Source: a virus (taxonomy: Duplodnaviria > Caudoviricetes). From it: a stretch of DNA of 63,103 bases. Below the pieces are notes generated by a model. That model did not search any database and had not been told where the DNA came from. It saw nothing but the letters and a program-made list of their open reading frames with translations. The stretch spans positions 1 through 63,103 of IMG/VR virus record IMGVR_UViG_3300048833_000065, one strand, 5' to 3'. Below, one piece after another: positions 2,995 to 61,539 of the stretch (the stretch's first letter is position 1; each line of letters begins with the position of its first letter). A program made the translations under genes and the position numbers.

Positions 2995-3013
2995 GGTCTT
3001 TGCTCCGTGGTGT

Positions 3014-3292
3014 TTAGTTGATCGTGTGCTTGGTGGTCTTCTCGCCTACAGTCTGGATCAGTCCACTTTCCAATCCTCCATTCATGACCAGTTGAAAGAG
3101 AAACCCGTAAAGCTCGCGGCGCTCGGCGGGAGGCGTGATCGCGAGAATGTCCATCGCGACCTCGACCATGCTTCCGAAGATATGAACGCCGCCCGCGTGC
3201 GTGATCTTGTTTGCCTCCTTCGCCCCGTTCTCTTTCGCCCACTTCTGAACGAGAGCGAGCAATTGACAGTGGAGGCATTCTTTGTCGCTCAT
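3014..3292 (-). CDS. Hypothetical protein
   Basis: ATGA-coupled ORF starting MSDKECLHC. Confidence 0.6.
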   Translation of the reverse strand: MSDKECLHCQLLALVQKWAKENGAKEANKITHAGGVHIFGSMVEVAMDILAITPPAERRELYGFLFQLVMNGGLESGLIQTVGEKTTKHTIN

Positions 3293-3957
3293 GGCATCAC
3301 CTGATCCCGCATGAGGCCAAGGGCGATGGTGAGCAAAGCCCGATCCCTCACCCGATAGCTCGTCGCCTTGCTCCACCGCTTCCGCTTGATCGCCTCGCTG
3401 AACTTCCTGCCGCGCGTGACCTTGCAGCGGAGCCAGAGGGCGAGGACGCGGCGCTGCGCTTCGTGCTGGTCGCCGCCGAGATAGGTTGCCGCCCATGAGA
3501 TCGCGGCGGTCATCTCGGAGACCTCGCGGGCCGTCGCCGTGTAGCGGCGCGGCTCCTTGTCCTTGCCGATCTCGTCTGTCTCGACCTGTCCCAGGAGGTC
3601 GCCCCAATCGCGAAGGATCGAAGGCCAGCCCACGGCGCGGTCGGACGGACGGACGGGACCACCGATCCGGTTGCAGAGCCTGACGGCGGCGACGAGCCGC
3701 TTGGCGACCATGTCGACGGTCCAGACGTGATCGGGAGGGAGATCGCGAACCGCTGCCGCGATCTGGTCGAGCAGGGAGACGGTGACGCCTTCCATATCGC
3801 TGACGACGGTCTTGGCTGCGCCCTTCCTTGTCACGCCCGCCCCCCTTTTGTGACGAGGGAGGGCGCTTTGCGTGACATGATCGACTTCCAGAGTGACAAT
3901 TCCGAAACCAAGCGTGATAATTTCCAGCGTTTCCGTGACATTTGTCGCCCGCCTCAT
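3289..3957 (-). CDS. DUF6362-like putative late transcription regulator
   Basis: WTVDMVAKRL, GWPSILRDW, C-terminal HTH-like WSKATSYRVRDRALLTIA; follows the replication gene. Confidence 0.55.
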   Translation of the reverse strand: MRRATNVTETLEIITLGFGIVTLEVDHVTQSALPRHKRGAGVTRKGAAKTVVSDMEGVTVSLLDQIAAAVRDLPPDHVWTVDMVAKRLVAAVRLCNRIGGPVRPSDRAVGWPSILRDWGDLLGQVETDEIGKDKEPRRYTATAREVSEMTAAISWAATYLGGDQHEAQRRVLALWLRCKVTRGRKFSEAIKRKRWSKATSYRVRDRALLTIALGLMRDQVMP

Positions 3958-6116
3958 CCGGGGAAGTCCGAGAGATCGATCTGCTTGCCGAAGGGAACCA
4001 CGTTCGATCCCTCCGCATCCGCCTGCGGCTCGACAGGCGAAGCATCGCCGGGGCGGCGGAAGCCGCGCACCCTCTTCCCGGTCAGCCAGATGAAAGGCGA
4101 CACCCGCCCGATGATCTGCCGGGACATGAGCCACTCCCCATGCCGCTTCATCGCCTGCCGGATCTTCGCCGCCTTCTTCTCCGGGTCCGTCTCGCCGTCA
4201 GCTTCAAAGGTCATGGCCTCGAAAGCCGCGCGAACCTTCTCGCCGCGCACCACCTTGAGGGACGCGGGAAGCTCAAGCGACGGCGGCGGTGTCTCGCCAT
4301 GATCTTCGATGGCCTTGTAGATCGCCCGGAGGAAGCTCTCGCACTGCGGGGAGAGCTTGATGGAGGGATCGACGGTCGCGAGATCGACCTCGGCCATGCG
4401 GCCCCGGTTCGGCGGCACAATCACGCAGGAGGAAATCTCGTCACCCTCGGTGTCCTTGCCGAGAAGAACCTTCTTGAGGACGAACTTGATCGACTTGCCG
4501 TCCTCGCCATCCTTCTGCTTCGTCACCGTCGCCTCGCGGACCAGACGCTCGTCAAGATCGGAGTTGCCTTCGAGCTTCCTGATCGTGATCACGTTGTCGA
4601 GGTTCGCGAAGATGCTCGTATGACCGCGCGGCTTCGCGCCGCCCGCGTTCATGTGATGGACGATCATCACATGGCAGCGGCATTCCTCCGCGATGCGGGC
4701 GCAGCGCGCGAGGACCACACTCATGTCCTCCGATGTGTTTTCGTTCGCTCCAGGCGTCGCGGCAGAGAGCGTGTCGATGACGACGAGTTCCAGCGGCACC
4801 GTGAAGGTCTTCGACCAGTGCCTGATCTCTTCCATGAGAAGGTTGGTCTGGTCCTCGTTGCCGTAGAGATCGACGGGCGATGGCAGGAGGACGAAGGGAA
4901 GGTCGGCGTCGCGGGCGATGCCGTGGAACTGCCGATATGCGCGAAGCCTTTTCTTGATGCCGCGCCCGCCCTCGCCCGCCTGATAGATGACGCCGCCCTT
5001 CATCGTGCGAAGCCCGAAGAAGTCCACGCCGCGCGCGATGGAGAGCGCAATGTCGAGCGTGAAGAAACTCTTTCCGGCTTGGCTCTCGCCCGCGCACATC
5101 GACCGCTCGCCGCGAGTGAGCAGGCCCTTGATCAGCCATTCATGCTCCGGTCCCGGATCATCAAGGTTCGCCCAAGGCAGAGCGTTGAAGTGCGAGCGCC
5201 ATGCGCTCTCGGGCGTCCAGACCTTCGCGCGGGCCTCGACCAGATCGTAGAGCGAGGCGGGATCGTTGCCAGCGTCGATCCAATCGGTGACGTCGCCCTT
5301 CTCCGGAAGGCCGGGAATGTCGAGGACGCGAACGCGGCGCGCGACGGTCGCGAGCTTGGAGCCGACGAGGTCACGATGCTTCCGCCCAGGCTCGTCGTTG
5401 TCGGGAAGAATGACGACGTCCGCGCCCTTGAACCACTCGCAGAGTTCATCGGGCCACTTGCCAGCGCCCATCGCGTTGCACGTCGCCGGAATGCCTTTGG
5501 CGGCAAGGTTCTCTGCGTCCTTCTCGCCCTCGACCACGAAGACCAGAACGTCCTGCGCCGTGGCCTCAATCAACTCGGTCAGCCGATATGGCACCTGTTC
5601 GACGCCCTTGACCGACCAGACCCACTCCTTGCTTCCCTCCGCGAACGGACGGCGCTGGCGGAAGGTCTTCTTCCGCACGCCGCCTTCCTCATACTCATAA
5701 CGGCAGACTTGGAAGCGGAGCGTCCCGGCCTCGTCGGTGTAGTCGTATGTCTTCGCGAGGACCGCGTTCTGCGGCACGCCGGGAGGCAGGCCATCCTGCT
5801 TGCCCTTTGCCGGGGTTTCTGTCGGTCGAGGACGGCTCTCCTGCTTCGTCGGCTCCGGACGCTCGTCTACAGCAAAGCCAGCCTCGGCAAGCCACCGCAC
5901 GGCCTCGCGGCCCTTGCAGCCCGTCTCGCGGGCGACGAGGTCGAGGACGCCACCGCCCTCGTTCACCTCGTTGTCGAACCACGCGCCCTTGTCGACGCGG
6001 ACAGACTTGCTGCCCTGCTTCCCCCACCGGAGTTCCTGCCGCGTCGAGAGATGCTTGTTCGGTTCGCCCCACAGCATCTTGGCGACCTCGGGCATCAGTG
6101 GCGTGAAGTCAGTCAC
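3954..6116 (-). CDS. Primase (TOPRIM)-helicase (RepA/AAA_25) fusion
   Basis: VEGEKDA and PDNDEPG TOPRIM motifs; GESQAGKS Walker A; VVIDT Walker B; IVHH; RGHTS. Confidence 0.9.
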   Translation of the reverse strand: MTDFTPLMPEVAKMLWGEPNKHLSTRQELRWGKQGSKSVRVDKGAWFDNEVNEGGGVLDLVARETGCKGREAVRWLAEAGFAVDERPEPTKQESRPRPTETPAKGKQDGLPPGVPQNAVLAKTYDYTDEAGTLRFQVCRYEYEEGGVRKKTFRQRRPFAEGSKEWVWSVKGVEQVPYRLTELIEATAQDVLVFVVEGEKDAENLAAKGIPATCNAMGAGKWPDELCEWFKGADVVILPDNDEPGRKHRDLVGSKLATVARRVRVLDIPGLPEKGDVTDWIDAGNDPASLYDLVEARAKVWTPESAWRSHFNALPWANLDDPGPEHEWLIKGLLTRGERSMCAGESQAGKSFFTLDIALSIARGVDFFGLRTMKGGVIYQAGEGGRGIKKRLRAYRQFHGIARDADLPFVLLPSPVDLYGNEDQTNLLMEEIRHWSKTFTVPLELVVIDTLSAATPGANENTSEDMSVVLARCARIAEECRCHVMIVHHMNAGGAKPRGHTSIFANLDNVITIRKLEGNSDLDERLVREATVTKQKDGEDGKSIKFVLKKVLLGKDTEGDEISSCVIVPPNRGRMAEVDLATVDPSIKLSPQCESFLRAIYKAIEDHGETPPPSLELPASLKVVRGEKVRAAFEAMTFEADGETDPEKKAAKIRQAMKRHGEWLMSRQIIGRVSPFIWLTGKRVRGFRRPGDASPVEPQADAEGSNVVPFGKQIDLSDFPG

Positions 6117-6888
6117 TGCGCTGGCCCTCCAGAAATGCGCGCACGTCGCGCCCGATGAGTTCCGGGATCAGAGGAACGAGGCTGTTGCCTAGTGCTTCAA
6201 TTCGGTCCACCCGGTTGGAAATCCCATGAGCCACTCGACCCACGTCGGGTTCAGATGCCCACCACCGGGCGGGGTCTGCTCCACCAGATAGACGCGGCGC
6301 GCGAGTTGATCCGCGCGATCCCTCATCGTGCCGTCCTTGTTCCGGCTCTCCAGCTTCATTCCAGGCGTGTCCTTCCAATCCCGCGCAGTCGGAGTAGGCC
6401 ACGATCCAGATGCGGTCCCGCTCATGCGGTGCGCCAACGTAGGAAGCCGGAATGCAATGCCATTCCGCATCATACCGGAGCGAGGCCAAGGCCCCGAGAA
6501 CGTCGCCCATTCCTCTATGAGTGAGCGCTGCGACGTTTTCCACAATGACGAAGCGCGGTCGAAGCTCGCCAACGAGGCGTGCGAATTCTCTCCAGAGGCC
6601 CGACTGCTCACCAGAAAGACCCGCGCCCTCACCGATGAGGCTGATGTCCTGACACGGGAAGCCGCCGCAGATGGCGTCGATAGCAATTCCATCTGACCGG
6701 AGCCGCTGCGCCGTGACCTCTTCGACCCGATCATAGATGGGAACCTCCGTCCAATGCTTCCGCAAGACCCGCTGACAAAACCTGCTCTGCTCCACGAACG
6801 CGCGCGCCTCGAATGCTCCGGATGCCTCAAGGCCAAGCGAGAACCCGCCGATGCCTGAGAACAGGTCGAGCAATCCGAGTGGCTTCAT
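6109..6888 (-). CDS. DNA (cytosine-5) methyltransferase, alpha polypeptide
   Basis: LFSGIGG (I), GFPCQ (IV), ENV (VI), HERDRIW (VIII), ALGNS (X); motif IX absent. Confidence 0.9.
   Translation of the reverse strand: MKPLGLLDLFSGIGGFSLGLEASGAFEARAFVEQSRFCQRVLRKHWTEVPIYDRVEEVTAQRLRSDGIAIDAICGGFPCQDISLIGEGAGLSGEQSGLWREFARLVGELRPRFVIVENVAALTHRGMGDVLGALASLRYDAEWHCIPASYVGAPHERDRIWIVAYSDCAGLEGHAWNEAGEPEQGRHDEGSRGSTRAPRLSGGADPARWWASEPDVGRVAHGISNRVDRIEALGNSLVPLIPELIGRDVRAFLEGQRSD
6189..6836 (-). CDS. Overlapping-frame beta polypeptide of the C5 methyltransferase (start uncertain)
   Basis: WPTPTARDWK...LNPTWVEWLMGFPTGWT supplies the TRD-like segment and motif IX missing from the main frame. Confidence 0.7.
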   Translation of the reverse strand: MALRHPEHSRRARSWSRAGFVSGSCGSIGRRFPSMIGSKRSRRSGSGQMELLSTPSAAASRVRTSASSVRARVFLVSSRASGENSHASLASFDRASSLWKTSQRSLIEEWATFSGPWPRSGMMRNGIAFRLPTLAHRMSGTASGSWPTPTARDWKDTPGMKLESRNKDGTMRDRADQLARRVYLVEQTPPGGGHLNPTWVEWLMGFPTGWTELKH

Positions 6889-7617: not shown

Positions 7618-8162
7618 GCCCTTGCTCCTTTCTCGAAAAGCGGCGTGCGGAGATGCGCGATCTTCGGGTTCCGCACGGCGGCGACATAATCAAAGCCCGC
7701 AAGCGCATCGGCTGCGTTGTCATCCTTCGGCTCGTATCCAAGCTGGCGGCAGCGCGCGATGACGGCGCGCTTTCCATCTGCGCCAGGCAGATTGCGACGA
7801 CCGATGAAGTGCTGCCGAATGTCATCGACGCGCGCTTCAAGGACCGAGTGAATGCCCATCCTGTTGCAGACCGCTTCTGTGATGGCGGGAAGGCCCATCA
7901 GCCGCCGCGCGGTGTCCACCGTGGTTTTGCCGCGAAGGAGCGATGGCGGAAGCGGTGCTTCGAAGGCCACGACGCGCGGAGAGTGGACCGCGATCATGTC
8001 GTGCAGCCACTTGAGGAAGTTGCCAAAGACCTCGCTGCTTGGCGCGCCTGACGGCGCGAGGCGCTGCGATCCGGAGATCGGCTTGCCGCCGATGGGACCG
8101 ACTGCCCATCCAGTGACGGTTGCGAGGTCAAGAAACAAAAGCGTCTCGACGCGGTCAGTCAT
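7614..8162 (-). CDS. RuvC-like Holliday junction resolvase
   Basis: LFLDLATVTGWA, VAFEAP and DDNAADALA acidic catalytic pattern. Confidence 0.8.
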   Translation of the reverse strand: MTDRVETLLFLDLATVTGWAVGPIGGKPISGSQRLAPSGAPSSEVFGNFLKWLHDMIAVHSPRVVAFEAPLPPSLLRGKTTVDTARRLMGLPAITEAVCNRMGIHSVLEARVDDIRQHFIGRRNLPGADGKRAVIARCRQLGYEPKDDNAADALAGFDYVAAVRNPKIAHLRTPLFEKGARA

Positions 8163-9286
8163 TTCCGGTTCCTTGCCTTCGGCTGCTCACTTGCCTCGAC
8201 ATGAAGCGGCGTGAACCCCTTGCGCGGCTCTCCCCTTGCAAACGCCTCACCAAACGGTGCGACGGATGCGCGACGGACAATCTCATAGAAGGCGTCGGGC
8301 TTCGCGCTATGCTCTCCGACTGCGGCCTCGAAATGAGACGGGATGGAGCGGTCGGTGATCGCAAGGTCGCCCTTGACCGCAAGGATGCAATGCTCCGTCG
8401 TATTGCGGAGCCACGCCCCGGCACCGAGAGAAGGCTTCACCCATGTCAGGATGCCCTTGTGCTTGAAGCCCCAATGAGCGACAAGCTCGCAAGCGAGCGG
8501 CATGTGCCAGTTCGTCGTCCAGAGCCACAGGTGACAATTCTCGTCGGCCCAATCCGGAACCGTGATCGCGCGAAGTTCCGGCGCGCGCATGGTCGCATAC
8601 TTTGGCGATCCATGATGCGCCGTTCCGCCTTCGTAGTGCCACGGCGGATCAACGATCAGCGCACGGAACTTCCCCTTCACGACGCGGACGCTCTCGACGC
8701 GCTTGCGGTCCTTCCGCTTCACAAGCTCGCCATAGGCTCCATCGACGGAGCGCGAGCGGTCCATCCGCTCGACCAGATCGCCGTAGACCTCCGGTTCCTC
8801 GCGCGCGGCCTCGACCACCTTGCGCGCCTTGTCATAGGTCATCTTCGACATGCCGACGCGAGCGGCGAGAACATCGCGGGTCTTGCCCGTAGAACCCTGT
8901 GCTAAATTGGCACCGGGTTCCTCGACCTTGACGCCCGCCTTCATCCGCTTCTTCGCCTCGGCCTCGACCTTCTCGCGGATCGCCTCGGCAATGGCGACCG
9001 CCTCGCTCGGCGTGAACTGCTTGCGGACCATGTTCTCGTCATGCTCCGCAGAGAGCATGTGATCGACGTCGATCAGGCGCGCAGGGATCGCCTTACGATC
9101 CATCAGCTTGAACGCTTCAAGGCGGCGCTGGCCGTAGACGAGGCGATATCCTCCCTTCACCTGAGAGACGCCGATGGGCTGCAAGAGGCCCACCGACTTG
9201 ATGCTCTCGACCAACGCGTCTAGGTCGCCAAGGTCTTTCCGGAACCGCTTGCCGACCGTGATGTCGCGGATGACGACCTCCATCAC
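8159..9286 (-). CDS. ParB N-terminal domain plus MT-A70 family adenine methyltransferase fusion
   Basis: GLLQPI...YGQRRLEA (ParB/Srx), HTH, then IVDPPW, LWLWTTN, RNTTEH, HSAKP, EAFAR. Confidence 0.88.
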   Translation of the reverse strand: MMEVVIRDITVGKRFRKDLGDLDALVESIKSVGLLQPIGVSQVKGGYRLVYGQRRLEAFKLMDRKAIPARLIDVDHMLSAEHDENMVRKQFTPSEAVAIAEAIREKVEAEAKKRMKAGVKVEEPGANLAQGSTGKTRDVLAARVGMSKMTYDKARKVVEAAREEPEVYGDLVERMDRSRSVDGAYGELVKRKDRKRVESVRVVKGKFRALIVDPPWHYEGGTAHHGSPKYATMRAPELRAITVPDWADENCHLWLWTTNWHMPLACELVAHWGFKHKGILTWVKPSLGAGAWLRNTTEHCILAVKGDLAITDRSIPSHFEAAVGEHSAKPDAFYEIVRRASVAPFGEAFARGEPRKGFTPLHVEASEQPKARNRK

Positions 9287-11124
9287 GCGACCTCCACGCT
9301 TCCGATCATCGCCGCACGGAATGACTTACGCGCTTCCGCGACCTCACTTTCGAAGTGACGCGAGAGGCGCGCAGTCGCAAGAACCGCCGTCAAGACAATC
9401 GCGCCAAAGCCCATCTTGATCGTCAGTTCATCGCTGACGCCAAGGCTCCGCATCGACAGCGCCGCCGCAATGTGGGTTCCGACCGTCGCATAGACGACGT
9501 TCTTTGCGTGGCGCTTCGCGATATCGTGAGCGACCGAGACAGGGACATTCGGCGGTGCCTTCTCAGCAATCGCGTCAACCACACTCAGGAAAAGCGTGTG
9601 TTCCTCGTTGAAGAAGGCGACGTTGTTGTGCTGCTCGAAATAAGCCGCCATGCCGCCGACACCCAAGTCTTCGAAGACGCTCGCGCTCACCCACTCATCT
9701 CGCGGAGCATCGATAGGAACGCGCCGCTTCGACGCTGGCTTATCGCCTTCATCCTGCAAGGAGCCGCGATTGCGCGTGGACGACTGGTCGTCGTTTGCAT
9801 CGGTGCGGACGTTCTGTGTATGACCGCCGTCGTCACCAAGATCAGAGCCGCTGCGGTCGCGAGCCAGCCCTTCAATCTCGTTCCGGAACTCACGCATGAG
9901 CTTGCGGAGATAGTCCCGAATGCTGGCGCTGTACTTATCATGCTGCGGCTCAAGGGCCTTTTCAATATCAGCAACCCACTGCGGTATATTGGTCCGGACA
10001 ACATCGCAGAAATCCTCCACATCAATCAGCGTGCCGTCGCGATAGTGCAGCGCGATCCGATTGATGTCGTTGAAGGCGACGTTGTCATCAAGCTCGACCA
10101 CAATCGAAACCTGAGTGAAGGAACGAACAAGGCCCCACTTCACGGCAAGGGGCGGCCACGCTTTCGAACCAAGCGTGACCCGTCCGACGTTCCTCGAAAG
10201 ACCCGCGTGGAGGCTGTGGATTTCATTGCGCCAGACGATGCCGCCAAAGGGCGTCTGACCGCCAGTCTGGCAGGGATCAAAGCGGCGGCTATAGCCGCCC
10301 GCGTCATACTTCGTTTTGATGAAGTGGATCGTGCCGTGTTCGAAGTCGATTGCGGAATAGTTGTCGGCGTGCTGCAAAAGGCTCCGCATACCAACGAGAG
10401 ACGTCCAGCTTCCCCATCCCTTGCTGCCCTTCGAACGCGTGATGCTGTGAGCAATCTTAAGGTCGACACCGTCATCAAGATCAAAAAAGCGAAACCCGAT
10501 GGCCTGCACAAGCCAGAGAGACGAAGGAAGGGCTGCGTCGAGGAATGGCCTTTGCGTCGTGTCCTGACCGACCTCATTTCCAAGCAGCGTGACTTCGGTC
10601 CAATCTGTTTCGAGATTGATGAAATCATAAAGACCGCCAGACGCATATTCACTCGTCACGTCGCGCACGAAGCTCGTTCCAGGCACCGGATTATCAACCA
10701 AGATACGACCGACCGTCTCCGCGTCGAGATCGGCGGCGAGCGTGACCTCAAGGACACGCCCTTCGACGCAAGAGCGATAGCGCATCCCTATTGCGTTGGA
10801 GAGGATCGAAGCAATCTTTGCGCCGCGCCCGAAGTTACTGTCGACCGCGTTCCGCTTGTCGATTGCCGCGTTGATATCCGAGAATTGCAAGAGCGAGCGT
10901 AGCGTCATGCCGCCACGGTTCCAGATCGACAGTTTCTGAACGCCGCCGATGGTCGTGCCATAAATGCGAATGAGGCGCTGGCCCTTCTGCTTGTCGCGGC
11001 AACCTTCGATGCCGTTCCGGACAAGCTCGCGGATCATCATTTCGCGCGCGCCCATCTTGCACTGACGCCACGCTTCTCCGGTGGGGTTATTGATCGTGAT
11101 CGGATCAAGGTAAATGCTGGTCAA
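9283..11124 (-). CDS. GHKL (MORC/Hsp90/MutL-fold) ATPase domain protein
   Basis: IRELVRNGIEG (N box), WNRGGMT (G1-like), SNFGRGAKIAS (G2), WTEVTL; TTG start with RBS. Confidence 0.7.
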   Translation of the reverse strand: MTSIYLDPITINNPTGEAWRQCKMGAREMMIRELVRNGIEGCRDKQKGQRLIRIYGTTIGGVQKLSIWNRGGMTLRSLLQFSDINAAIDKRNAVDSNFGRGAKIASILSNAIGMRYRSCVEGRVLEVTLAADLDAETVGRILVDNPVPGTSFVRDVTSEYASGGLYDFINLETDWTEVTLLGNEVGQDTTQRPFLDAALPSSLWLVQAIGFRFFDLDDGVDLKIAHSITRSKGSKGWGSWTSLVGMRSLLQHADNYSAIDFEHGTIHFIKTKYDAGGYSRRFDPCQTGGQTPFGGIVWRNEIHSLHAGLSRNVGRVTLGSKAWPPLAVKWGLVRSFTQVSIVVELDDNVAFNDINRIALHYRDGTLIDVEDFCDVVRTNIPQWVADIEKALEPQHDKYSASIRDYLRKLMREFRNEIEGLARDRSGSDLGDDGGHTQNVRTDANDDQSSTRNRGSLQDEGDKPASKRRVPIDAPRDEWVSASVFEDLGVGGMAAYFEQHNNVAFFNEEHTLFLSVVDAIAEKAPPNVPVSVAHDIAKRHAKNVVYATVGTHIAAALSMRSLGVSDELTIKMGFGAIVLTAVLATARLSRHFESEVAEARKSFRAAMIGSVEVA

Positions 11125-11167
11125 CCTACTGCTCCGTGGTAAAGCGCGGAACCGCCGCGCGCGGTCT

Positions 11168-12272: not shown

Positions 12273-12911
12273 ATGGGAAACATCAATATGGCTCTGTCCG
12301 TAGGAGAGCGCGTACAGGCGCGCATGAGCGATCTACACACGAACTCGACAGAGGTGGCCCGCAGGGCTGGCCTCGAAAGGACTTTCGTCCATGACCTCAT
12401 TTCTGGACGCAAGAAGACCGTCACCGCCGAAGCCCTGATCGCGCTCGCCAAGGCGCTCCAGTGCCTGCCGGAAGAACTCGTCGGAAAGATGGGCGAAATC
12501 CAGCGCAACGCGGTGGAAGGGATAGAGATCGTCGGGATCATCGAACCGGAGGTCTGGCGCGGATCAGCGCCGCGCAATCTCGGAACGATCACGACTTCTA
12601 ACGACGGAAACCCACACGTAAAGGCGTTCGTGGTGCGCGGCGATGAGGCCGCGCCCATAGGGATCAGGGACGGAAGCGCTCTCGTCGTAGACATGTCCGG
12701 TGCGGTTCGCCCAGGAGACATCGCAGTTGTCGAAAGGACGAGAGACAATCTCAGGGAGCTATCACTGTGGCGGGTCGCGAACGGTGATGGGCCGACGATC
12801 CTGTCGTCACTCGACGGCAACCCTGAGAAGATCATCGAAGCGGGCGACGCGGTAAAGGTGATCGGGCGCGTGCAGAGGGCGGTCCTGACGTTCATGTCCT
12901 CGCTGCTCTAG
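12273..12911 (+). CDS. CI-like XRE repressor with S24-like C-terminal domain
   Basis: HTH STEVARRAGLERTFVHDLISGRK; C-terminal VVRGD...IRDG...GDIAVV...VIGRV. Confidence 0.8.
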   Translation: MGNINMALSVGERVQARMSDLHTNSTEVARRAGLERTFVHDLISGRKKTVTAEALIALAKALQCLPEELVGKMGEIQRNAVEGIEIVGIIEPEVWRGSAPRNLGTITTSNDGNPHVKAFVVRGDEAAPIGIRDGSALVVDMSGAVRPGDIAVVERTRDNLRELSLWRVANGDGPTILSSLDGNPEKIIEAGDAVKVIGRVQRAVLTFMSSLL

Positions 12912-12948
12912 TCTGGGGAAAACCACCCCAATCTTAAACCACTAGCTA

Positions 12949-12979
12949 TTGACAGCCGCTCGCGACGCACCCGTATAAT
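12949..12979 (+). promoter_or_regulatory. Sigma70-type promoter
   Basis: TTGACA (12949-12954), 19-bp spacer, TATAAT (12974-12979). Confidence 0.6.
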
Positions 12980-12985
12980 CGCGCG

Positions 12986-13150
12986 ATAGCGCGCGCGCGG
13001 CGACAACCTCTGAAGGTTACAACACACCACAAGCCGCAGCGGTGCAGGCGCGGCCTACAGGCCCGCGCCCTGACGAGACAACAACCTATCCCCGAGTTGA
13101 GATGCTTATAGATTGAGGAATACACGCGCGCGCGCGAGAACGCGCGCTTT
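12986..13150 (+). ncRNA. Candidate small RNA
   Basis: Follows the consensus promoter; no ORF; internal hairpins; ends in GCGCGCG-AGAA-CGCGCGC-TTT. Confidence 0.4.
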
Positions 13151-13235
13151 CCGTCTCACGGTCGGATGATGGCTCATATCTGATCCTGCGTCTTTCCGGC
13201 GCACTGTTTCCCGCGTCTCCTTCCAACTAAAAATC

Positions 13236-13287
13236 TCGGTCTTATCCGATCAAGGCTCTTGCGGAACCGGAAATATCCGATTACCTT
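13236..13287 (+). promoter_or_regulatory. Promoter with two operator-like sites
   Basis: TTGCGG-N17-TACCTT with CCGGA-AATA-TCCGA in the spacer (13267-13280) and TCGGT-CTTA-TCCGA (13236-13249). Confidence 0.6.
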
Positions 13288-13342
13288 CCGCGCATCGCCC
13301 AGGCATGAGCCAGGCGGGAAAACCAGCCACGGAGACTACCGA

Positions 13343-14554
13343 ATGATGAACATCGTTTCCCCCATCGCCACGGAGGCCAGCGCGCCTGTCGGGGCGCGCG
13401 CCGTCGATACAGGACGCGGCCAAGCCAACATGATCGCGTCGCGGCAGTGGATCAGCCGCCCTGCCGATCAGAAGTTCCTCTCCCTCACCGCCCTGCGTGA
13501 CAGCGTCCTCGCCCGCCGCGAGAAGAGCCGCGAGCAGCGCGTCAACAACAAGGGTATCGAATTTTTCTCCAATCCCGAGCCGAAGAGCATGGCCGATACC
13601 CATGACCTCTGGATCGGCCTCAACGACGGCAGCGAGATCACGCCGTCCCATTGGTCCTTCGGCCAGCTTTGCTCGCTCGCCAAGGCCCCGGCCTCATACC
13701 TCCGCACGCTCCCGGCGCAGATCGGAAGCGACGCGCTGACCTTCGGCCTTCGGCAGGCGCGGGACGTCGAAGAGGTCAAGCTCTACCATGACAACGAGAC
13801 GCTCTTCGCCGCCACAGGCCCCGACTACGGGCGCATCTTCGATCAGGAGGTGGTCGAGGCGGTCATGCAGATCGCGGGCGACGGGACGGGCGACACGCGC
13901 TGGAAGGTTCCCGGTCGCCTCGATTGGCGCACGATGCAGTATGACCCCGAACACCCGATCACCATCGACACCACGACGCTGTACGCGAGCGACCGCGATG
14001 TCTGGATCATGCTCACCGACGACCGGAACCCGATTGAGATCGGCAAGCTCCGCAACGGCGAACCCGATTACCTCAATCGCGGTTTCATCATCACGAACAG
14101 CGAGGTCGGCAAGAGCGCGCTCAAGATCTTCGCCTTCTACTTCCGCGCCATCTGCTGCAACCACATCCTTTGGGGGGTCGAGAACTTCCAAGAGATCAGC
14201 CTTCGCCACAGCAAGGCGGCACCCTCGCGCTTCATCGAAGAGGCCCGCCCCGCGCTGGCCTCCTTCGCAGAGGGATCGGTGACGCGGCTGGTCGAGGGCG
14301 TCGAGCGCGCCAAGGCGATCAAGCTCGCCAGCGATCAGGACGAGGCGCTGACCTTCCTCACCGAGCGCAAGTTCAGCCGCGCGAAGGCGCTGGCGATCCT
14401 TGAGACGGGCGAGAAGGAAGAAGGCGAGCCACCGCGCACGGTCTGGCAGATGGCTCAAGCCATCACCGCAGACGCGCGGGCGATCCAGAACACCGATGAG
14501 CGGGTGGAACAGGAACTGGTCGCCAAGACCATCCTCGACAAGGCAGCGGCGTGA
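13343..14554 (+). CDS. DUF932 domain protein
   Basis: QWISRPADQKFLSL, WSFGQLC, SDRDVW, RGFIITNSEVG, ICCNHILWG; RBS GGAG. Confidence 0.75.
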   Translation: MMNIVSPIATEASAPVGARAVDTGRGQANMIASRQWISRPADQKFLSLTALRDSVLARREKSREQRVNNKGIEFFSNPEPKSMADTHDLWIGLNDGSEITPSHWSFGQLCSLAKAPASYLRTLPAQIGSDALTFGLRQARDVEEVKLYHDNETLFAATGPDYGRIFDQEVVEAVMQIAGDGTGDTRWKVPGRLDWRTMQYDPEHPITIDTTTLYASDRDVWIMLTDDRNPIEIGKLRNGEPDYLNRGFIITNSEVGKSALKIFAFYFRAICCNHILWGVENFQEISLRHSKAAPSRFIEEARPALASFAEGSVTRLVEGVERAKAIKLASDQDEALTFLTERKFSRAKALAILETGEKEEGEPPRTVWQMAQAITADARAIQNTDERVEQELVAKTILDKAAA

Positions 14555-14560
14555 AGGGGG

Positions 14561-14587
14561 CGGGGCGGGCCTAACAAGCCCGCCCCG
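14561..14587 (+). terminator. GC-rich stem-loop after DUF932
   Basis: CGGGGCGGGC-N7-GCCCGCCCCG; no U-tract. Confidence 0.4.
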
Positions 14588-14597
14588 TAGATCGCCA

Positions 14598-14906
14598 ATG
14601 AGCAGGGCATTGATCTTGAAAATCGAACGCGCAACGAAAACGCAATGCGACGAGGTTCGCCCCGTCATCGTCGCCCTTATGGCGCAAGACCTTCTCGACC
14701 ACGGCGTCGATCTGACGAACGACGACGCGGTGATTTTGAATTTGCTTTCCAACCGCCATTCCTCGCGCTGCATCGCGGCGTGCATGGATGAGGCGGTCAA
14801 GGTCGCAACAATCCTTCAAGGGTTCATCCATGAGCAAGATCACGGCGGAAAGTCTCGGCATCAAGAAGACGCTGCAAGTGCGGTCGATCACTGTCGCCTG
14901 TCCTAA
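14598..14906 (+). CDS. Hypothetical protein
   Basis: ORF starting MSRALILK in the + operon. Confidence 0.5.
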   Translation: MSRALILKIERATKTQCDEVRPVIVALMAQDLLDHGVDLTNDDAVILNLLSNRHSSRCIAACMDEAVKVATILQGFIHEQDHGGKSRHQEDAASAVDHCRLS

Positions 14907-16400: not shown

Positions 16401-16412
16401 GAGGACCAGCCA

Positions 16413-19055: not shown

Positions 19056-19140
19056 AAAGCAAAGGGCCGCGATCCCGAAGGACGCGGCCCGACCCCACCC
19101 GACAAGTTTCTTACCACGGAGACTTTCTAGCGAGGATGCG

Positions 19141-19582: not shown

Positions 19583-19611
19583 TCTGCCGTCACCACGGAG
19601 GACCAGCCACA

Positions 19612-21331: not shown

Positions 21332-21415
21332 TCTTTTCCGTTGATCGTTCTGAACGACGAGCTATGTGTGCTTTACCGCCTCGACCGGGCGGCAACGCAA
21401 ACCACGGAGACTTAG

Positions 21416-22745: not shown

Positions 22746-22819
22746 ACGGGCCAAATTCGACTTGCAGACGAGAAGATGCTGGCCCATGTCAGCGCCACCA
22801 CGGAGAAAGGAAACTTGCC

Positions 22820-23056: not shown

Positions 23057-23079
23057 CCACCGACCACGGAGACCCGCAC

Positions 23080-55581: not shown

Positions 55582-55981
55582 TCTTCCGCCTCAACTCCAT
55601 GTCGCGCGTGACCCTTGCACCCATGCCGACGATCTCCGCGCGCGTTTCAGTCACGAAGGCGGCGATCTCGGCCTTCGCGTCATCGATGGGAATGAGATCG
55701 CGCTCGCGCTCGGCAATGCGAAGTTCGATCTCGCGCGCCCTTGCATCGCGGACGCGGCTGTCAGCCTGCACCTTCGAAGTGCGGCGTTCGTCATCCTTGA
55801 GGAACCGGATGTAACCCTGCACCGCGCCCACGATGGGATAGGTGTCCTTCGCGGGCTTCGGGATGTATCCGGCCTTCACAAGCTGCTGGATGCGCTGCTT
55901 CGTGAGCATGAGCAGACGACAGGTCTGCTCAAGGTTCAGCGTGCCGCCAGCGGTCTGCTTCTCACTCGGCGGCTGCGCCAT
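55466..55981 (-). CDS. Terminase small subunit (Nu1-like)
   Basis: wHTH LTKQRIQQLVKAGYIP; coiled coil; directly upstream of TerL. Confidence 0.85.
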   Translation of the reverse strand: MAQPPSEKQTAGGTLNLEQTCRLLMLTKQRIQQLVKAGYIPKPAKDTYPIVGAVQGYIRFLKDDERRTSKVQADSRVRDARAREIELRIAERERDLIPIDDAKAEIAAFVTETRAEIVGMGARVTRDMELRRKIDKECDGILTRLADRAEKTSQALETESGASEASAEDYA

Positions 55982-57341
55982 TCACCAACTCTTCGCGCTT
56001 CGCCTTCACGAACTCGTTATAGCTCTCCGCGCCATCGGTCGCGGGATCGTACCGCTCGTCGGCCACCTTCGCGAAGGTCTGCCCGGTGGCCTCCAGCTTC
56101 GCCTTGCGCCCGGTGAACTCCTGCCAGCGCTTCACCGCCACGTCGACATAGAGCGGGTTCAGTTCCACCGCGAGGCAGCGCCGCTTCGTCTGCTCTGCCG
56201 CGATGATCGTCGTGCCGCTGCCGCTGAACGGCTCGTAGACCGCGTCACCGACCGCCGAGTTGTTCTCAATCGGCTTCCGCATGCACTCGACAGGCTTCTG
56301 CGTGCCGTGTCCAACGCCGCCGTCCTCGCGAGCCTTGATGCTCCAGAGCGTGGACTGCGAGCGGTCGCCATGCCAGTGCGCCTTTGCGCCCTTCCGGACG
56401 GCGTACCAGCACGGCTCATGGTGCCAGTGATAGTTTCCCCGGCTCAGTGCGAAGCGATCCTTCGCCCAGATGATCTGCGAGCGAAGGTCGAAGCCGCAGG
56501 CGACGATGCTCTCCGCGACGACGCTCGCGAACAGACCAGCGTGCCAGACGTAGATCACGTCGCCGGGAAAGAGCGCCCAGGCTTCGCGCCAATCGGCGCG
56601 GTTGTCGTTCAAGACCTCGCCCATCTTGGCCTTGTTCTTGTTCACGCCAGCCTCGGCGCGCCACTTCGGATCGTACTCCACGCCATAGGGCGGATCGGTC
56701 ACCATCAGGTGCGGCTTCTCATCGCCAAGCAGAGCCTTGACCGTCTCGGCGCTGGTGCAGTCGCCGCAGATGATCCGGTGGTCGCCCATGATCCAGACGT
56801 CGCCGGGGCGGCTTACCGCGCGCGCCGCGACCTCGGGAGCCGCATCCTCGTCGGTGTCGCCCTGCTCGGGTCCGAAGATATCGGCAAGCTCTCCGTCGAG
56901 GAACCCGGTGAGCTTGACGTCGAAGTCCTCTTCGCGAAGGAACAGAAGCTCGGCCTTGAGCATCTCGTCGTCCCACTCGCTGTTCTCGGTCAGCTTGTTG
57001 TCCGCGATCCGATAGGCGCGCTTCTGCGCTTCCGTCCAGCCGCGCGCCACCATCACCGGGACATAGCCGGGAGGAAGGTAGTCGCCGTCCATGCCCTTTA
57101 TCGGATCGTTCGTCTTCGCGGTTTCCTTCGCCGCCATCACGCGACCGTGGCCCGCGATGATCTCTCCGTCCTCGTCAACCAGGATCGGCATCGTGAAACC
57201 GAACTGACGCATCGACGCGGCGATCTGCTCGACCTGTTCCCGCGAGTGCTTCCGGCTATTCCGCGCGGACGGCACAAGATCGTCCGTCGCCCAAAGTTCA
57301 AACTGGCCCGCCGCTGGACGGGCCTTTGCCTTCTTCGCCAT
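55962..57341 (-). CDS. ParB-like N-terminal domain plus DNA N6/N4 methyltransferase
   Basis: RNSRKHS...FGFTMPIL...IIAGHGR; TDPPY; HGTQKP; EPFSGSGTT. Confidence 0.92.
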   Translation of the reverse strand: MAKKAKARPAAGQFELWATDDLVPSARNSRKHSREQVEQIAASMRQFGFTMPILVDEDGEIIAGHGRVMAAKETAKTNDPIKGMDGDYLPPGYVPVMVARGWTEAQKRAYRIADNKLTENSEWDDEMLKAELLFLREEDFDVKLTGFLDGELADIFGPEQGDTDEDAAPEVAARAVSRPGDVWIMGDHRIICGDCTSAETVKALLGDEKPHLMVTDPPYGVEYDPKWRAEAGVNKNKAKMGEVLNDNRADWREAWALFPGDVIYVWHAGLFASVVAESIVACGFDLRSQIIWAKDRFALSRGNYHWHHEPCWYAVRKGAKAHWHGDRSQSTLWSIKAREDGGVGHGTQKPVECMRKPIENNSAVGDAVYEPFSGSGTTIIAAEQTKRRCLAVELNPLYVDVAVKRWQEFTGRKAKLEATGQTFAKVADERYDPATDGAESYNEFVKAKREELVNGAAAE

Positions 57342-57460: not shown

Positions 57461-57468
57461 AGCCGAGA

Positions 57469-58713: not shown

Positions 58714-58766
58714 TGCGGCACGCGCATAAAACATGCGCTGAACGGCATAACCACGGAGACACCACC

Positions 58767-59396
58767 ATGAACGCAAACGTCGAGGCGCTTCGCGCCAACA
58801 TCACCAAGCTCCCGGAGAGCGACCAGACCTTCGCGGCCTCGCTCCTCACCCAACTCGACCGCAAGAAGAGCCTCTCCGAAAAGCAATGGGCATGGGTCGC
58901 CAAGCTGGCCCGCCGCGCCGCTGACGCCGACAAGCCGAAGGAGCAGATCGGAAGCCTCGCCGCCATCATGGCCCTCTTCCAGCGCGCCGCTTCGGGCCTC
59001 AAGAGGCCGCAGATCATCCTCGCCCTCCGCGACGCCGGGATCTCGATCCGGCTCACCATAGCGGGCGACAGGGCGCGCTTCCCCGGCTCCATCAACATCG
59101 TGGAACGCGGCGGTGAGAAGACCTTCTTCGGGCGCGTCAAGCTGGACGGCACGCTCGACCTTCGCGAGGACGCCGCCCCGGCCTCCCTCCCTGCCCTCCT
59201 GCGGGCCTTCGCCGCCGACCCGGCAGGGATCGCCGCCGACTACGGACACGCCACCGGATGCTGCTGCTTCTGCGCCAAGGAGCTTACTGACGCCCGCTCG
59301 GTCGCGGTCGGCTACGGACCCGTCTGCGCCGAGAAGTGGTCGCTGCCTTGGGGCGAGGCCAGCGCCCCGGATTTCACGCTCAAGGCAGCGGCCTAG
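58767..59396 (+). CDS. DUF6011 Zn-finger domain protein
   Basis: LSEKQW; CCFCAKELTDARSVAVGYGPVCA. Confidence 0.8.
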   Translation: MNANVEALRANITKLPESDQTFAASLLTQLDRKKSLSEKQWAWVAKLARRAADADKPKEQIGSLAAIMALFQRAASGLKRPQIILALRDAGISIRLTIAGDRARFPGSINIVERGGEKTFFGRVKLDGTLDLREDAAPASLPALLRAFAADPAGIAADYGHATGCCCFCAKELTDARSVAVGYGPVCAEKWSLPWGEASAPDFTLKAAA

Positions 59397-59469
59397 CGGG
59401 GAACTCTCCCGCCGCATCCTGCGGGGTGCGGCGTGGGGGCAATCCCGCCCGACTACCACGGAGACTATC

Positions 59470-59760
59470 ATGCTCACCATCTACGAACCGCCGCGCCAGT
59501 ACGCGGTCCAGCGCGAGACCGAAGACGGAGGCCGCGTCCGCGTCGGCCTATACGACAGCCAGACCGAAGCGATGCAGGCGGTCGCCCGCTCCATCGCACG
59601 CACCGGAGTTCCCGCCGAGAAGCACTCGATCTTCTGGGCCGCTTGGAGCGCGGTCCTCTTCGAAGAATGGAACGGCGAGGTCCAGCGCATGGTCGCGGAG
59701 AACGACCCGATCATGCACGACGAAGACGAGGTCAACGATATCGAAGGCTCGCAGCACTGA
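59470..59760 (+). CDS. Hypothetical early protein
   Basis: ACCACGGAG RBS. Confidence 0.65.
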   Translation: MLTIYEPPRQYAVQRETEDGGRVRVGLYDSQTEAMQAVARSIARTGVPAEKHSIFWAAWSAVLFEEWNGEVQRMVAENDPIMHDEDEVNDIEGSQH

Positions 59761-59843
59761 TGCGGATCACCGCCGATGACCTCGGCACACTTCTGGCGAT
59801 GGGCGCGCTTTGCGCCCTCGCCTACCTCATCCTCATGCTCTGA
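59760..59843 (+). CDS. 27-aa single-TM peptide
   Basis: TGATG-coupled; MRITADDLGTLLAMGALCALAYLILML. Confidence 0.45.
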   Translation: MRITADDLGTLLAMGALCALAYLILML

Positions 59844-59858
59844 CCACGGAGACAGCCA

Positions 59859-60122
59859 ATGACCTTTGAACAGTTCCAAGCCAGCAAGACGCGCGAGGCC
59901 AGCGCGGACTACGCCGAGAAGATCGGCATGCACGCGGAGTATATCGGAGCCTCGCACGTCCTCACCTATTTCGACGGCACGGCATACATCGAAGACGACG
60001 AGGGCGAGGGATACTACCTCATCCTCGGTCGCTCCGATTGGATCAGCAAAGACCTTCCTGCCCTTGAGAAGCGCCTCTTCGATTGGTGCGTGAGCGAAGG
60101 CTATTTCGAGGTGACGCAATGA
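59859..60122 (+). CDS. Hypothetical acidic early protein
   Basis: ACCACGGAG RBS. Confidence 0.65.
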   Translation: MTFEQFQASKTREASADYAEKIGMHAEYIGASHVLTYFDGTAYIEDDEGEGYYLILGRSDWISKDLPALEKRLFDWCVSEGYFEVTQ

Positions 60123-60754
60123 CCACGATCCCGCAGTACAAGCATGAGTTCCCCGACTTCGACTATGACGTCGCCGCCCTCATCGCGGAGCTTCCCGCAG
60201 GCTGGTCGGATCGCTCTTGGCACAACGATGCGATGCCGAAGGCCAGCGCCGATCCCGGTGGCTATGTTGAACTCTGGTTCGACTACGCCGACGCCGCGCT
60301 GTCCGAGTTTCCGGAAGGCCGCGAGTGCGAAACGATGAAGCGGTTCTGCCTTACCTCGCACATGAACGACGGCCAGCCGATCTTCGAAACCGACGATTGG
60401 CCGACGATGCGCGAGTGGATCAAGGCGAACGCCGACCTTATCAAGCAGCACGTCTTCGAAGCCGAAGCGAATGATATCGCCCACGGCTTCACGCGGCTGC
60501 TCAAGCAGCAACTCACCATCGCTCAATGGAAGGAGATGGTCGCGAAGAACAAGACCGATCCCCGTTACGCTTCCGGCGCGTGCGCCTCGCAGGACTATCT
60601 CGACGCAAACATGTCGATGGCCGAAGCCTTCAAGGACGTGACGGGCCGCGAGCCTGACGGCGACAACGAGGACGACGCCGCGCTCTGGAACAAGGCGTGG
60701 GAACTCGCTCGCAAGCGGTGGAACGACGAGGCAAGCGAAAGGGCAAAGAGATGA
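60119..60754 (+). CDS. Hypothetical acidic early protein
   Basis: DRSWHNDAMP and CASQDYLDANMSM phage motifs. Confidence 0.7.
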   Translation: MTTIPQYKHEFPDFDYDVAALIAELPAGWSDRSWHNDAMPKASADPGGYVELWFDYADAALSEFPEGRECETMKRFCLTSHMNDGQPIFETDDWPTMREWIKANADLIKQHVFEAEANDIAHGFTRLLKQQLTIAQWKEMVAKNKTDPRYASGACASQDYLDANMSMAEAFKDVTGREPDGDNEDDAALWNKAWELARKRWNDEASERAKR

Positions 60755-60939
60755 ACGAAGGTCGCGTCTTCAAAACGAGAGCCGAATTGCTCGGCGGTCA
60801 CTATCACGTTCGGGTCTATTCCGCGAAGCGGCCCGACTACACCTTCGCGTGCCTTGGGACGCTGGTGATGGATGAAGCCGACTACGTCGCCTTCTCGACC
60901 GCGCTCAAGGCGGAACATCTATCGGAGCAGAAATCATGA
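60751..60939 (+). CDS. Hypothetical protein
   Basis: ATGA-coupled. Confidence 0.55.
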   Translation: MNEGRVFKTRAELLGGHYHVRVYSAKRPDYTFACLGTLVMDEADYVAFSTALKAEHLSEQKS

Positions 60940-61196
60940 TCAGCAAGGAACTACAGGACGCTCTCGACGCGGCAGAAGACCAGTGCCTCAAGGCGGTGAG
61001 CCACGTCGACGCGCACAACTCAAACGAACGCGGAGCCGACGCCCGTCAATGGGTGCGAGAGGCGTTCGATGTACTGACCGAAGAAATCAAGCTGGAGCCG
61101 CACCGCAAGCTTCTGACCTATTGGCGCAAGGCGGTCGCGGACGGCAAGACGACGCTCGGCTTCGAAGAGTGGAAGAAGGAGAACCCCAATGGGTGA
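60936..61196 (+). CDS. Hypothetical protein
   Basis: W...VADG.TTLG..EW motif. Confidence 0.6.
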   Translation: MISKELQDALDAAEDQCLKAVSHVDAHNSNERGADARQWVREAFDVLTEEIKLEPHRKLLTYWRKAVADGKTTLGFEEWKKENPNG

Positions 61197-61539
61197 ATAC
61201 TCGTTCACCATCGCAGACGGCGTCTATGCCATCGCCTGCGGCAACCAGCAGATCGCATCCGCTTTCTCTCGGGACACCGCAGAGAAGATCACCGCTGCGC
61301 TGAACGCAATGGAAGAGGGACCGCGCACCTTCTCGCTTACCAACCGCCTCAAGGAGTGGCGGCTGCGTTGCGGCCTCACGCAGGCGCAGCTTGCCGACCT
61401 CGTTGGTGTGAACCAAGCCACCATCGGAAGGTATGAAGCCGCCAGGCTCGGGCTTGACCTCGAAATATTGGAGAAGATTTCGAACGCACTTCAAGTCGAT
61501 CCTTCCCTTTTAATCAGCAACCACGGAGCAAAGACATGA
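61189..61539 (+). CDS. XRE HTH protein
   Basis: NRLKEWR...GLTQAQLADLVGVNQATIGRYE. Confidence 0.85.
   Translation: MGEYSFTIADGVYAIACGNQQIASAFSRDTAEKITAALNAMEEGPRTFSLTNRLKEWRLRCGLTQAQLADLVGVNQATIGRYEAARLGLDLEILEKISNALQVDPSLLISNHGAKT

Follow-up and report, generated by a model that had tools for sequence, protein, structure and literature searches.

We analyzed a complete phage genome of 63,103 bp (IMG/VR record IMGVR_UViG_3300048833_000065; 62% GC, direct terminal repeats), which in its full length is called the window below, and found that a short sequence, ACCACGGAG, often continued by A or AC, is repeated directly in front of the start codons of a set of its non-structural genes. We give roughly even chances to the view that this motif is a start-associated sequence (SAS), that is, an element which acts at the RNA level in translation initiation and which has a sequence-specific reader. 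The position of the copies, their orientation, the class of genes that they precede, their sharp separation from all other starts, the lack of ribosomal RNA (rRNA) pairing by the ACCAC part of the motif and the predicted single-strandedness of that part point to a function in translation initiation at the RNA level.

Copies of the motif and their position at gene starts

The window contains 11 exact copies of ACCACGGAG (174 per Mb) where 0.34 +/- 0.62 are expected, and none of 100 dinucleotide-preserving shuffles reached this number. The initial annotation, made from the letters of the genome alone, had located all 11 copies correctly and had also reported a variant with GCC in front of a DUF932 gene, which we found as GCCACGGAG at 13326-13334; its estimate of about one copy by chance was too high, as the shuffles give about 0.3. 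The 8-mer CCACGGAG occurs 16 times against 2.7 expected, and the five occurrences beyond the exact copies comprise the GCCACGGAG before the DUF932 gene, a second GCCACGGAG within that gene, and three unrelated ones. All 11 exact copies are in sense orientation relative to the downstream gene (nine on the plus and two on the minus strand). The distance from the 3' end of a copy to the downstream start codon is 6-14 nt in ten cases and 19 nt in the remaining one, at 19113, which had been recognized as farther upstream. The last four letters of the motif, GGAG, stand at the position of a Shine-Dalgarno (SD) sequence. The 12 sites, including the variant, are listed below, with spacers counted from the 3' end of the motif to the start codon (aa, amino acids; HTH, helix-turn-helix; ORF, open reading frame).

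3003..3011, minus strand: ACCACGGAG, 8 nt before ATG 2994 of the gene for a 144-aa DnaA-domain-IV-like HTH protein (2560-2994); the copy begins 2 nt past the stop codon of the upstream gene
11132..11140, minus strand: ACCACGGAG, 7 nt before TTG 11124 of the gene for a 613-aa protein (9283-11124); a GC hairpin and TTT lie directly upstream of the copy
13326..13334, plus strand: the one-mismatch (GCC) variant GCCACGGAG, 8 nt before ATG 13343 of the gene for a DUF932 protein (13343-14554)
19113..19121, plus strand: ACCACGGAG, 19 nt before ATG 19141 of a 109-aa ORF with a weak PHROG 'DNA binding protein' match
19592..19600, plus strand: ACCACGGAG(G), 11 nt before ATG 19612 of the gene for a large serine recombinase/integrase (19612-21297)
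21401..21409, plus strand: ACCACGGAG(AC), 6 nt before ATG 21416 of the gene for an Amidoligase_2 protein (21416-22408)
22797..22805, plus strand: ACCACGGAG, 14 nt before ATG 22820 of the gene for a 78-aa XRE-type HTH protein
23063..23071, plus strand: ACCACGGAG(AC), 8 nt before ATG 23080 of the gene for an AIG2/GGACT-like protein (23080-23634); the copy sits 6 nt past the stop of the XRE gene
58750..58758, plus strand: ACCACGGAG(AC), 8 nt before ATG 58767 of the gene for a 209-aa protein with a DUF6011 domain (58767-59396), the first gene of a rightward unit diverging from the structural operon
59455..59463, plus strand: ACCACGGAG(AC), 6 nt before ATG 59470 of the gene for a 96-aa protein of no family
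59843..59851, plus strand: ACCACGGAG(AC), 7 nt before ATG 59859 of the gene for an 87-aa protein of no family; the first A of the copy is the last base of the TGA closing the upstream ORF
61520..61528, plus strand: ACCACGGAG, 7 nt before ATG 61536 of the gene for a 157-aa protein of no family; the upstream XRE/MqsA-like gene (61189-61539) harbors the copy in its 3' end and has a 4-nt overlap with the start

In order to compare these starts with all others, we used a map of 87 gene starts built with our own codon-statistics model and inspection of SD sequences rather than with a standard gene caller. The best match to the motif between positions -30 and -4 has no mismatch at 11 starts, one mismatch at one start, two at five and three to five at seventy; the motif starts form a discrete class and not the tail of a distribution. 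The initial annotation had seen no copy before head, tail or lysis genes and had raised the question of whether the motif might be equally common before structural genes. In the head/tail/lysis block, where the large terminase (TerL), portal, major head, sheath, tape measure and endolysin genes were identified, no gene out of 39 is preceded by it, as opposed to 12 of the 48 other genes (Fisher p=4.1e-4). The 12 motif genes are accessory or early genes and are spread over three transcription units. Where the remaining starts have an SD, those of head, tail and lysis genes included, it is of the purine-rich AAGGAG or TAGGAGG types, and late genes of the phage also bear GGAG.

Beyond 9-11 nt nothing is repeated among the copies, and the 40 nt upstream of them are mutually unrelated; a single pair, at 61520 (plus) and 3011 (minus), has 16 nt in common (ACCACGGAGCAAAGAC), as had been noticed before. 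Because the flanks are non-homologous, duplication does not account for the copies being identical, and because no upstream sequence is shared, there is no common promoter. We rejected a promoter reading also because copies lie within operons and a sigma-70-type scan of 11.0-24.5 kb returned 1 site versus 2.2 expected. On the 3' side, the base after GGAG is A at 8 of the 12 sites and AC follows at 7 of them, with variable sequence beyond. An intergenic gap of at least 19 nt precedes 11 of the 12 motif genes, which therefore need de novo initiation. At two sites, 19113 and 22797, the motif is kept despite a nearer SD-like element, and thus it is more than an SD: ATG 19141 has its own GAGG 5 nt upstream, so that the motif is not the operative SD there, and ATG 22820 has a second SD-like AGGA 8 nt upstream. 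A bias towards ACN as the second codon (6 of 12 motif genes and 17 of 75 others, p=0.07) was not used.

Predicted pairing and folding of the motif in messenger RNA

The host of the phage is probably a proteobacterium and not an actinobacterium. The nearest bacterial relatives of the ParB-N6/N4 methylase encoded by the phage, at 57-58% identity, are found in a Rhodobacteraceae metagenome-assembled genome (MAG), a Hyphomicrobiales MAG, and Tianweitania sediminis, and we took these three alphaproteobacterial genomes as stand-ins for the host lineage. They contain 8, 16, and 32 copies of ACCACGGAG in 5.4, 3.1, and 4.7 Mb, a density of 1.5-6.8 per Mb that is equal to or below that of a reversed-pattern control. 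The stand-in alphaproteobacterial 16S tail, which may not match that of the host's own 16S, ends in ...GGATCACCTCCTTT (also written ...CACCTCCTTT). Only the GGAG of the motif therefore pairs with it, which bears out the earlier remark that SD pairing leaves ACCAC unexplained, and GGAG would represent a 4-bp, weak-to-moderate SD. We discarded the idea of extended pairing with rRNA: along the 16S the 11-mer has at best 7 consecutive complementary positions, G-U pairs counted, and 365 of 500 shuffled motifs reach this length too.

In predicted folds of the region from -45 to +30, ACCAC is unpaired with a probability of 0.44-1.00 at all 12 sites, and GGAG is mostly paired (unpaired probability 0.01-0.55). 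The motif regions have the weaker predicted structure, with a mean fold energy of -15.0 kcal/mol versus -19.1 kcal/mol for the other 75 starts. Relative to 34 other GGAG-bearing starts, motif genes have a higher A+C fraction both in the 5-mer preceding the core (0.98 versus 0.63) and in the spacer (0.76 versus 0.58). This 5-mer consists of A and C only at 11 of the 12 sites, and ACCAC contains no ACA triplet.

On the reading that we favor, GGAG would serve as a short SD pairing with the 16S tail, while ACCAC would act as an unstructured A/C-rich enhancer or standby tract, akin to the C/A-rich enhancers found 5' of the SD in enterobacteria. One sequence-specific partner would read the element in mRNA and would raise or shut off the translation (or the stability) of the motif mRNAs jointly, apart from late genes. 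This partner would most likely be a phage-encoded protein or a small RNA; a host factor seems less likely. The argument for a specific partner is that 11 copies are letter-perfect without conserved flanks and without a cloud of near variants, that 11 of the 12 sites use one and the same of 32 possible A/C-only 5-mers, and that virion genes avoid the element.

Known types of partner at the SD fit poorly. The initial annotation had been reminded of CsrA, and a host CsrA/RsmA-type regulator clamping the SD would find in the motif the CA-N-GGA core that was quoted there. Such a dimeric clamp could also bridge the two copies of GCCACGGAG in the DUF932 gene, the only two-copy gene, where the second copy (13367-13375) lies in the first codons, 41 nt past the one at 13326. 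However, CsrA (PF02599) has no match in the phage or in any of the three stand-in genomes (a Caulobacter control genome is likewise without a match), 11 of the 12 genes have a single site, and the mostly paired GGAG does not lie in a loop of the predicted folds. The CsrA idea thus did not hold up, and we consider it extremely improbable. Only slightly more credit is due to an endoribonuclease that would inactivate early or accessory mRNAs at the SD, in the way that T4 RegB, together with ribosomal protein S1, acts on GGAG. According to the available parts of Durand et al. 2006 (PMC1702504), GGAG within the SD of early and not late messages is the handle used by RegB, a target class to which the sites described here could belong, and an MqsA-like antitoxin-type HTH protein is encoded beside one motif gene. 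In the same parts of that study, though, the RegB/S1 determinant is GGA with an A-rich 3' stretch and the 5' context is dispensable, whereas the specific portion here, ACCAC, is on the 5' side and the 3' side is A, C or G and then variable. Late genes of this phage have GGAG as well, and protein family scans gave no nuclease family.

We also rejected an antisense RNA. The sole intergenic 8-nt anti-motif, CTCCGTGG (15034-15041, plus strand), is within chance (4 non-family 8-mers versus 2.7 expected), and it sits in a GC-rich hairpin of ordinary stability (z = -1.09).

A DNA operator as an alternative

The motif could instead be a 9-bp operator on double-stranded DNA, where a phage HTH protein, either the DnaA-domain-IV-like protein (2560-2994) or an XRE protein, would block or activate transcription in the manner of a stoperator. 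The 'stoperator' sites of cluster A mycobacteriophages are oriented relative to transcription, a property that the motif has too, and DnaA domain IV reads asymmetric 9-bp boxes as a monomer. The phage does encode a DnaA_C-like HTH protein: 2560-2994 matches Bac_DnaA_C in Pfam with 29 bits, below the cut-off of 31.5, and the DnaA C-terminal region in NCBIfam with an E-value of about 1e-3. Since this gene and an XRE gene both bear the motif, autoregulation would be possible. On the other hand, 10 of the 11 copies have GGAG at SD distance, mostly as the sole SD, which a roadblock to transcription would not need; no copy lies in a divergent promoter region away from a start; and five other records bearing ACCACGGAG (G001-G005) contain no member of the DnaA_C family. 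Searches of five related records and of viral contigs gave no relatives of the protein itself. We therefore consider a DNA operator distinctly unlikely.

Search for a reader and recurrence of the design in other phages

The RNA-level reading with a specific reader has to be weighed against a series of results that count against it. Scans of about 65 phage proteins with Pfam, PHROGs or NCBIfam gave no RNA-binding or translational-regulator family, and an Rfam scan of the window gave no known RNA family. No phage protein has a BLASTP match (E<=0.05) in more than two of the five other ACCACGGAG-bearing records; together with the absence of DnaA_C from them, this led us to reject a phage-encoded reader common to these phages. 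Of the post-transcriptional regulon proposed in the initial annotation, what stands is a real, start-associated, sense-oriented motif confined to non-structural genes; the trans-acting reader did not emerge among the proteins scanned.

We then consider the motif beyond this genome. A scan of IMG/VR for two copies of ACCACGGAG 242-272 nt apart gave 71 loci, in several of which (G001-G005, L068, L121, and more) the 9-mer stands 5-10 nt before the ATGs of small ORFs. The phage G001, which is 93% complete and has 43% GC, carries seven forward and no reverse copies, with about 0.1 expected per strand. In G002 there are six copies, each behind a TATAAT-like repeat, and in G002, G003, and G005 the 9-mer forms part of longer promoter or hairpin cassettes that are themselves repeated. 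At least two pre-ATG copies are found in 20 of the 71 loci, but two control sequences of the same composition behave similarly (CAACCGGAG, 17 of at least 120 loci; CCAACGGAG, 13 of 78). Like the ACCACGGAG loci, the control loci show an A/C-rich 5-mer, CGGAG, usually A, and then 5-9 nt to the ATG; they come from phages of 37-64% GC, and many belong to longer repeated cassettes with a promoter or hairpin. Because the controls recur about as often as ACCACGGAG, what is common to these phages is a design and not a shared code, and we rejected a universal cross-phage code. Ribosome sites of the form 'A/C-rich tract + CGGAG(A)' are widespread among phages, and a given A/C-rich 9-mer turns up in several lineages. 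In 52 unselected phage loci, 8.1% of the pre-ATG GGAG sites have an A/C-only 5-mer, versus 3.1% if 5-mers were used uniformly.

Conservation among relatives, compared at protein identities of up to 66%, is also poor. There is one copy of the motif in 52 loci of ParB-methylase relatives; these loci were taken with 10-kb flanks and the methylase gene lies about 580 bp from the TerL gene, so that the homologous region was covered. Five whole amidoligase-bearing records, four of them with TerL relatives at 60-64% identity, contain two copies, one copy, and, in three cases, none, and no exact copy occurs in the 40.5-kb amidoligase locus of a Porphyromonas phage. Homologous genes in the relatives have A/C-rich leaders with different 5-mers. 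A generic cis-acting design accounts for part of the motif signal.

The alternative that follows from this is a purely cis-acting ribosome site, in which an A/C-rich tract and a GGAG(A) SD provide moderate initiation for independently initiated accessory genes with no dedicated factor, and in which the identity of the copies reflects a narrow optimum or homogenization. This explanation is possible, though we judge it rather unlikely. It is in line with the recurrence of the same architecture, built on other A/C-rich 5-mers, before ATGs in many unrelated phages, with the need for de novo initiation at 11 of the 12 genes, with the predicted unpaired state of ACCAC, and with the failure of our scans to yield a candidate factor. 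There is also an established precedent: C/A-rich (ACA) enhancers 5' of the SD, which are silenced by the multi-target small RNA GcvB (Yang et al. 2014, PMC3879156, as far as its available text goes). Like the motif, these are A/C-rich mRNA elements immediately 5' of the SD, and they define a regulon through one trans-acting RNA. In that text they are degenerate and flexible in position, unlike the letter-perfect motif, which has no ACA in ACCAC and for which we found no complementary regulatory RNA. More generally, a generic design leaves three things unaccounted for: the identical 5-mer at 11 of 12 sites, with no cloud of near variants and with non-homologous flanks; the absence of the motif from virion genes, whose products are needed in abundance; and its retention at two sites that have a better-placed SD-like element.

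The motif in front of amidoligase and GGCT genes

A more specific connection exists with two genes of the window, those for the amidoligase and the AIG2/GGACT-like protein, whose homologs are termed GGCT below. In G001 and its kin L085/L071, amidoligase homologs (32-39% identity) and GGCT homologs (47-49%) have the motif upstream. The 9-mer also precedes amidoligase homologs in L352, L429, and L430, the motif-sharing amidoligases being 32-47% identical, and GGCT homologs carry it in L085 and L430. We took the 80 best amidoligase loci as an unbiased sample, with 74 distinct upstream regions, and found the exact 9-mer before the amidoligase in three of these 74. Among pre-ATG GGAG sites, it accounts for 6 of 367 in amidoligase loci versus 0 of 739 and 3 of 2167 in loci collected otherwise (3 of 2906 elsewhere in all). 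In the amidoligase loci it precedes 1 of 42 GGCT homologs and none of 18 homologs of the small neighbor protein. The link between amidoligase and motif is real but narrow, involving about two independent lineages. It is tempting to see ACCACGGAG as a translational 'address' for a dedicated trans-acting factor (a phage protein of a novel family or a small RNA) that would switch accessory and lysogeny-linked genes as a regulon, and that would have kept the motif on amidoligase and GGCT genes in lineages of 41-62% GC through the same reader; we regard this extended proposal as doubtful and put it forward tentatively.

The amidoligase results may also be read as the footprint of mobile cassettes, the motif being the core of gene-boundary linkers that travel with accessory genes or recombine them. 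Promoter/stem-loop (PeSL) cassettes reportedly mediate modular shuffling in T4-type phages and flank small accessory ORFs. The presence of the 9-mer inside longer gene-boundary cassettes in G002, G003, and G005 resembles PeSL, the motif genes are accessory and often stand behind hairpins, and the phage has RecT and an exonuclease. Unlike PeSL, however, the copies in the window have nothing repeated beyond 9-11 nt and no promoter or stem-loop consensus, and such a length is far too short for efficient homologous recombination. The GC content at third codon positions (GC3) of motif genes equals that of other genes (0.79 versus 0.77, p=0.34), which rules out a foreign composition and therefore argues that the motif genes are not recent imports. 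The motif-sharing amidoligases are so divergent that retention of the motif over such a distance would itself need selection, and its rarity before GGCT and small-protein homologs also speaks against co-transfer. We consider a cassette footprint improbable.

Parts of the region 19.8-23.6 kb (19861-23563), which encodes the integrase, the amidoligase, and the AIG2/GGACT-like protein, are about 89-93% identical to freshwater metagenome contigs, the upstream region of the amidoligase gene included. Thus, a fairly close relative of this sediment phage occurs in a freshwater metagenome. A metagenome scan with the amidoligase gave relatives at 46-49% identity only. The amidoligase, a 77-aa protein, (XRE), and the AIG2/GGCT-like protein make up a recurrent phage module (21416-23634 in the window; loci L351-L430). 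Of the 80 best amidoligase loci, 42 have a GGCT homolog, 18 the small protein, and 5 a nearby DUF6011 protein like that of 58767-59396. In nine loci the module adjoins a large terminase 60-64% identical to that of the phage. The amidoligase of the phage has a DUF3489-like stretch at its C-terminal end.

Other repeats in the phages compared

G005 (L137-L138; 72 kb, 62% GC) has a start-associated repeat of its own, GATAGGAGATAG, in 10 copies at record positions 46046-72038. Nine copies lie 2-5 nt before ATGs, and the tenth is a variant, GATAGGAGAAAG, 5 nt before an ATG. They mostly stand behind TAGGAT/TAGTAT-like elements, and their core, GATAGGAG, is the core of the SAS consensus of cluster K mycobacteriophages. 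ACCACGGAG is present in G005 as well, in three copies behind terminator-like hairpins.

L081, a 105-kb contig of 68% GC, was rejected as an instance of the same feature: what it has in 12 copies is a different, promoter-like repeat of which the motif, in reverse complement, is one part. That repeat is about 45 nt long, and its 12 copies fall within 14.8 kb; on the gene strand it has a conserved ATTCTTGGTTAC-like box, 11-13 nt, and CTCCGTGGT, 6 nt before the ATG, and it resembles a phage-specific promoter giving very short leaders. Five further loci (L066, L119, L122, L106, L092) were discarded as tandem coding repeats of Thr-Thr-Glu type. In contigs bearing the ParB methylase (L023, L025, L027, L028, L031, L034, L035), another 9-mer, GCTTCCGAC, occurs 6-7 times per locus.

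Gene content of the phage

The direct terminal repeat is an exact one of 127 bp (window positions 1-127 and 62977-63103), and the genes between are arranged in the following units.

12118 to 90, minus strand: leftward unit with an AAA_25 helicase-type protein, a C5 methylase, a ParB_N-MT-A70 methylase, and the DnaA-domain-IV-like protein
12273 to 23634, plus strand: rightward unit with an S24 CI-type repressor, DUF932, exonuclease, RecT, large serine integrase, Amidoligase_2, XRE, and AIG2/GGACT-like proteins
58168 to 24246, leftward: structural/lysis block of 39 genes with large terminase, portal, major head, tail sheath, tape measure, and endolysin (PHROGs)
58767 to 63058, plus strand: rightward unit of small genes, diverging from the structural operon

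It follows from this gene map that the phage is a temperate myovirus. Pfam supported most of the gene labels that had been proposed initially (integrase, Amidoligase_2, HTH_3/XRE, AIG2/GGACT-like, DUF932, and, below the cut-off, Bac_DnaA_C). The label GHKL ATPase fared worse: the protein of 9283-11124 has no match in Pfam, PHROGs, NCBIfam or PDB sequences, and what speaks for the label is a language-model lead, the nearest Atlas clusters carrying HATPase_c or HATPase_c_3 in 20-23% of members.

Three DNA methyltransferases are encoded: a C5 methylase (6109-6888), a ParB_N + MT-A70 fusion (8159-9283), and a ParB_N + N6_N4 protein (55962-57341), the last of which adjoins the terminase genes, about 580 bp from the large-terminase gene. 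The XRE-type HTH proteins of 61189-61539 and 22820-23056 have weak matches to an MqsA antitoxin model, and the former may carry a zinc ribbon in its N-terminal part; no partner toxin was found for either of them. About 1.4 kb between the DUF932 gene and the gene at 16002 (14555-16001) contains only weak ORFs, namely 14830-15012, 15064-16005 (without the usual GC3 peak), and 15157-15435 on the opposite strand, with no Pfam, PHROG or NCBIfam match.

Comparison with known start-associated sequences and implications

The closest parallel is the SAS of cluster K mycobacteriophages, a 13-bp sequence, GGGATAGGAGCCC, present in 11-19 copies per genome, for which a sequence-specific partner was inferred by the same argument that we use here (Pope et al. 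2011, PMC3203893, in the sections available). Its function was still awaiting experimental verification in 2025, according to the available portion of a later report (PMC12699233). As far as these accounts describe the cluster K SAS, both elements are short asymmetric repeats with an SD core (11+1 copies here), both have one orientation a few nt before starts of non-structural genes only, and both have conserved positions beyond 16S pairing; the cluster K SAS is rare in bacterial genomes. This likeness, to which the initial annotation had drawn attention, fits feature by feature. The two differ in that ACCACGGAG(AC) is 9-11 nt long, is unrelated to GGGATAGGAGCCC and does not match it with two or fewer mismatches; its extension is A/C-rich and lies only 5' of the SD; it lacks the inverted repeats of the extended SAS in that account; and it is not conserved across the nearest relatives found. 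Overall, the motif has five of the seven features of the SAS kind, and conservation across relatives is not among the five. Judged from the letters, it appears to be the same kind of element as the cluster K SAS and not a member of the same family by descent.

A second parallel is found in Citrobacter phage Mordin (Felix O1-like), where a 26-bp SAS-like repeat precedes the translational starts of eight hypothetical genes in one genome arm (PMC4611695, in the text available). It too has GGAG after an A/C-rich stretch upstream of starts; unlike the motif described here, it is a longer cassette of a virulent myovirus, noted in a remark of a genome announcement. A search of full-text literature for ACCACGGAG gave, among the matches listed, primer and sequence mentions unrelated to phages.

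SAS have been on record since 2011. The present element matches them in anatomy, yet its sequence is shorter and unrelated, and its bearer, a temperate myovirus, is probably no actinobacteriophage; the SAS phenomenon is thus broader than one phage cluster. The element is not categorically new and adds to a known, mechanistically unsolved kind. Repeated sites of the form 'A/C-rich 5-mer + CGGAG(A)' before small non-structural genes are common in uncultured phages, often in promoter/terminator cassettes, and such sites deserve to be handled as a class when gene starts are predicted or regulatory motifs of phages are sought. If the motif does have a specific reader, it would give the phage a compact means of translating accessory genes on a schedule apart from that of virion genes, and it could possibly serve as a portable handle for engineering.

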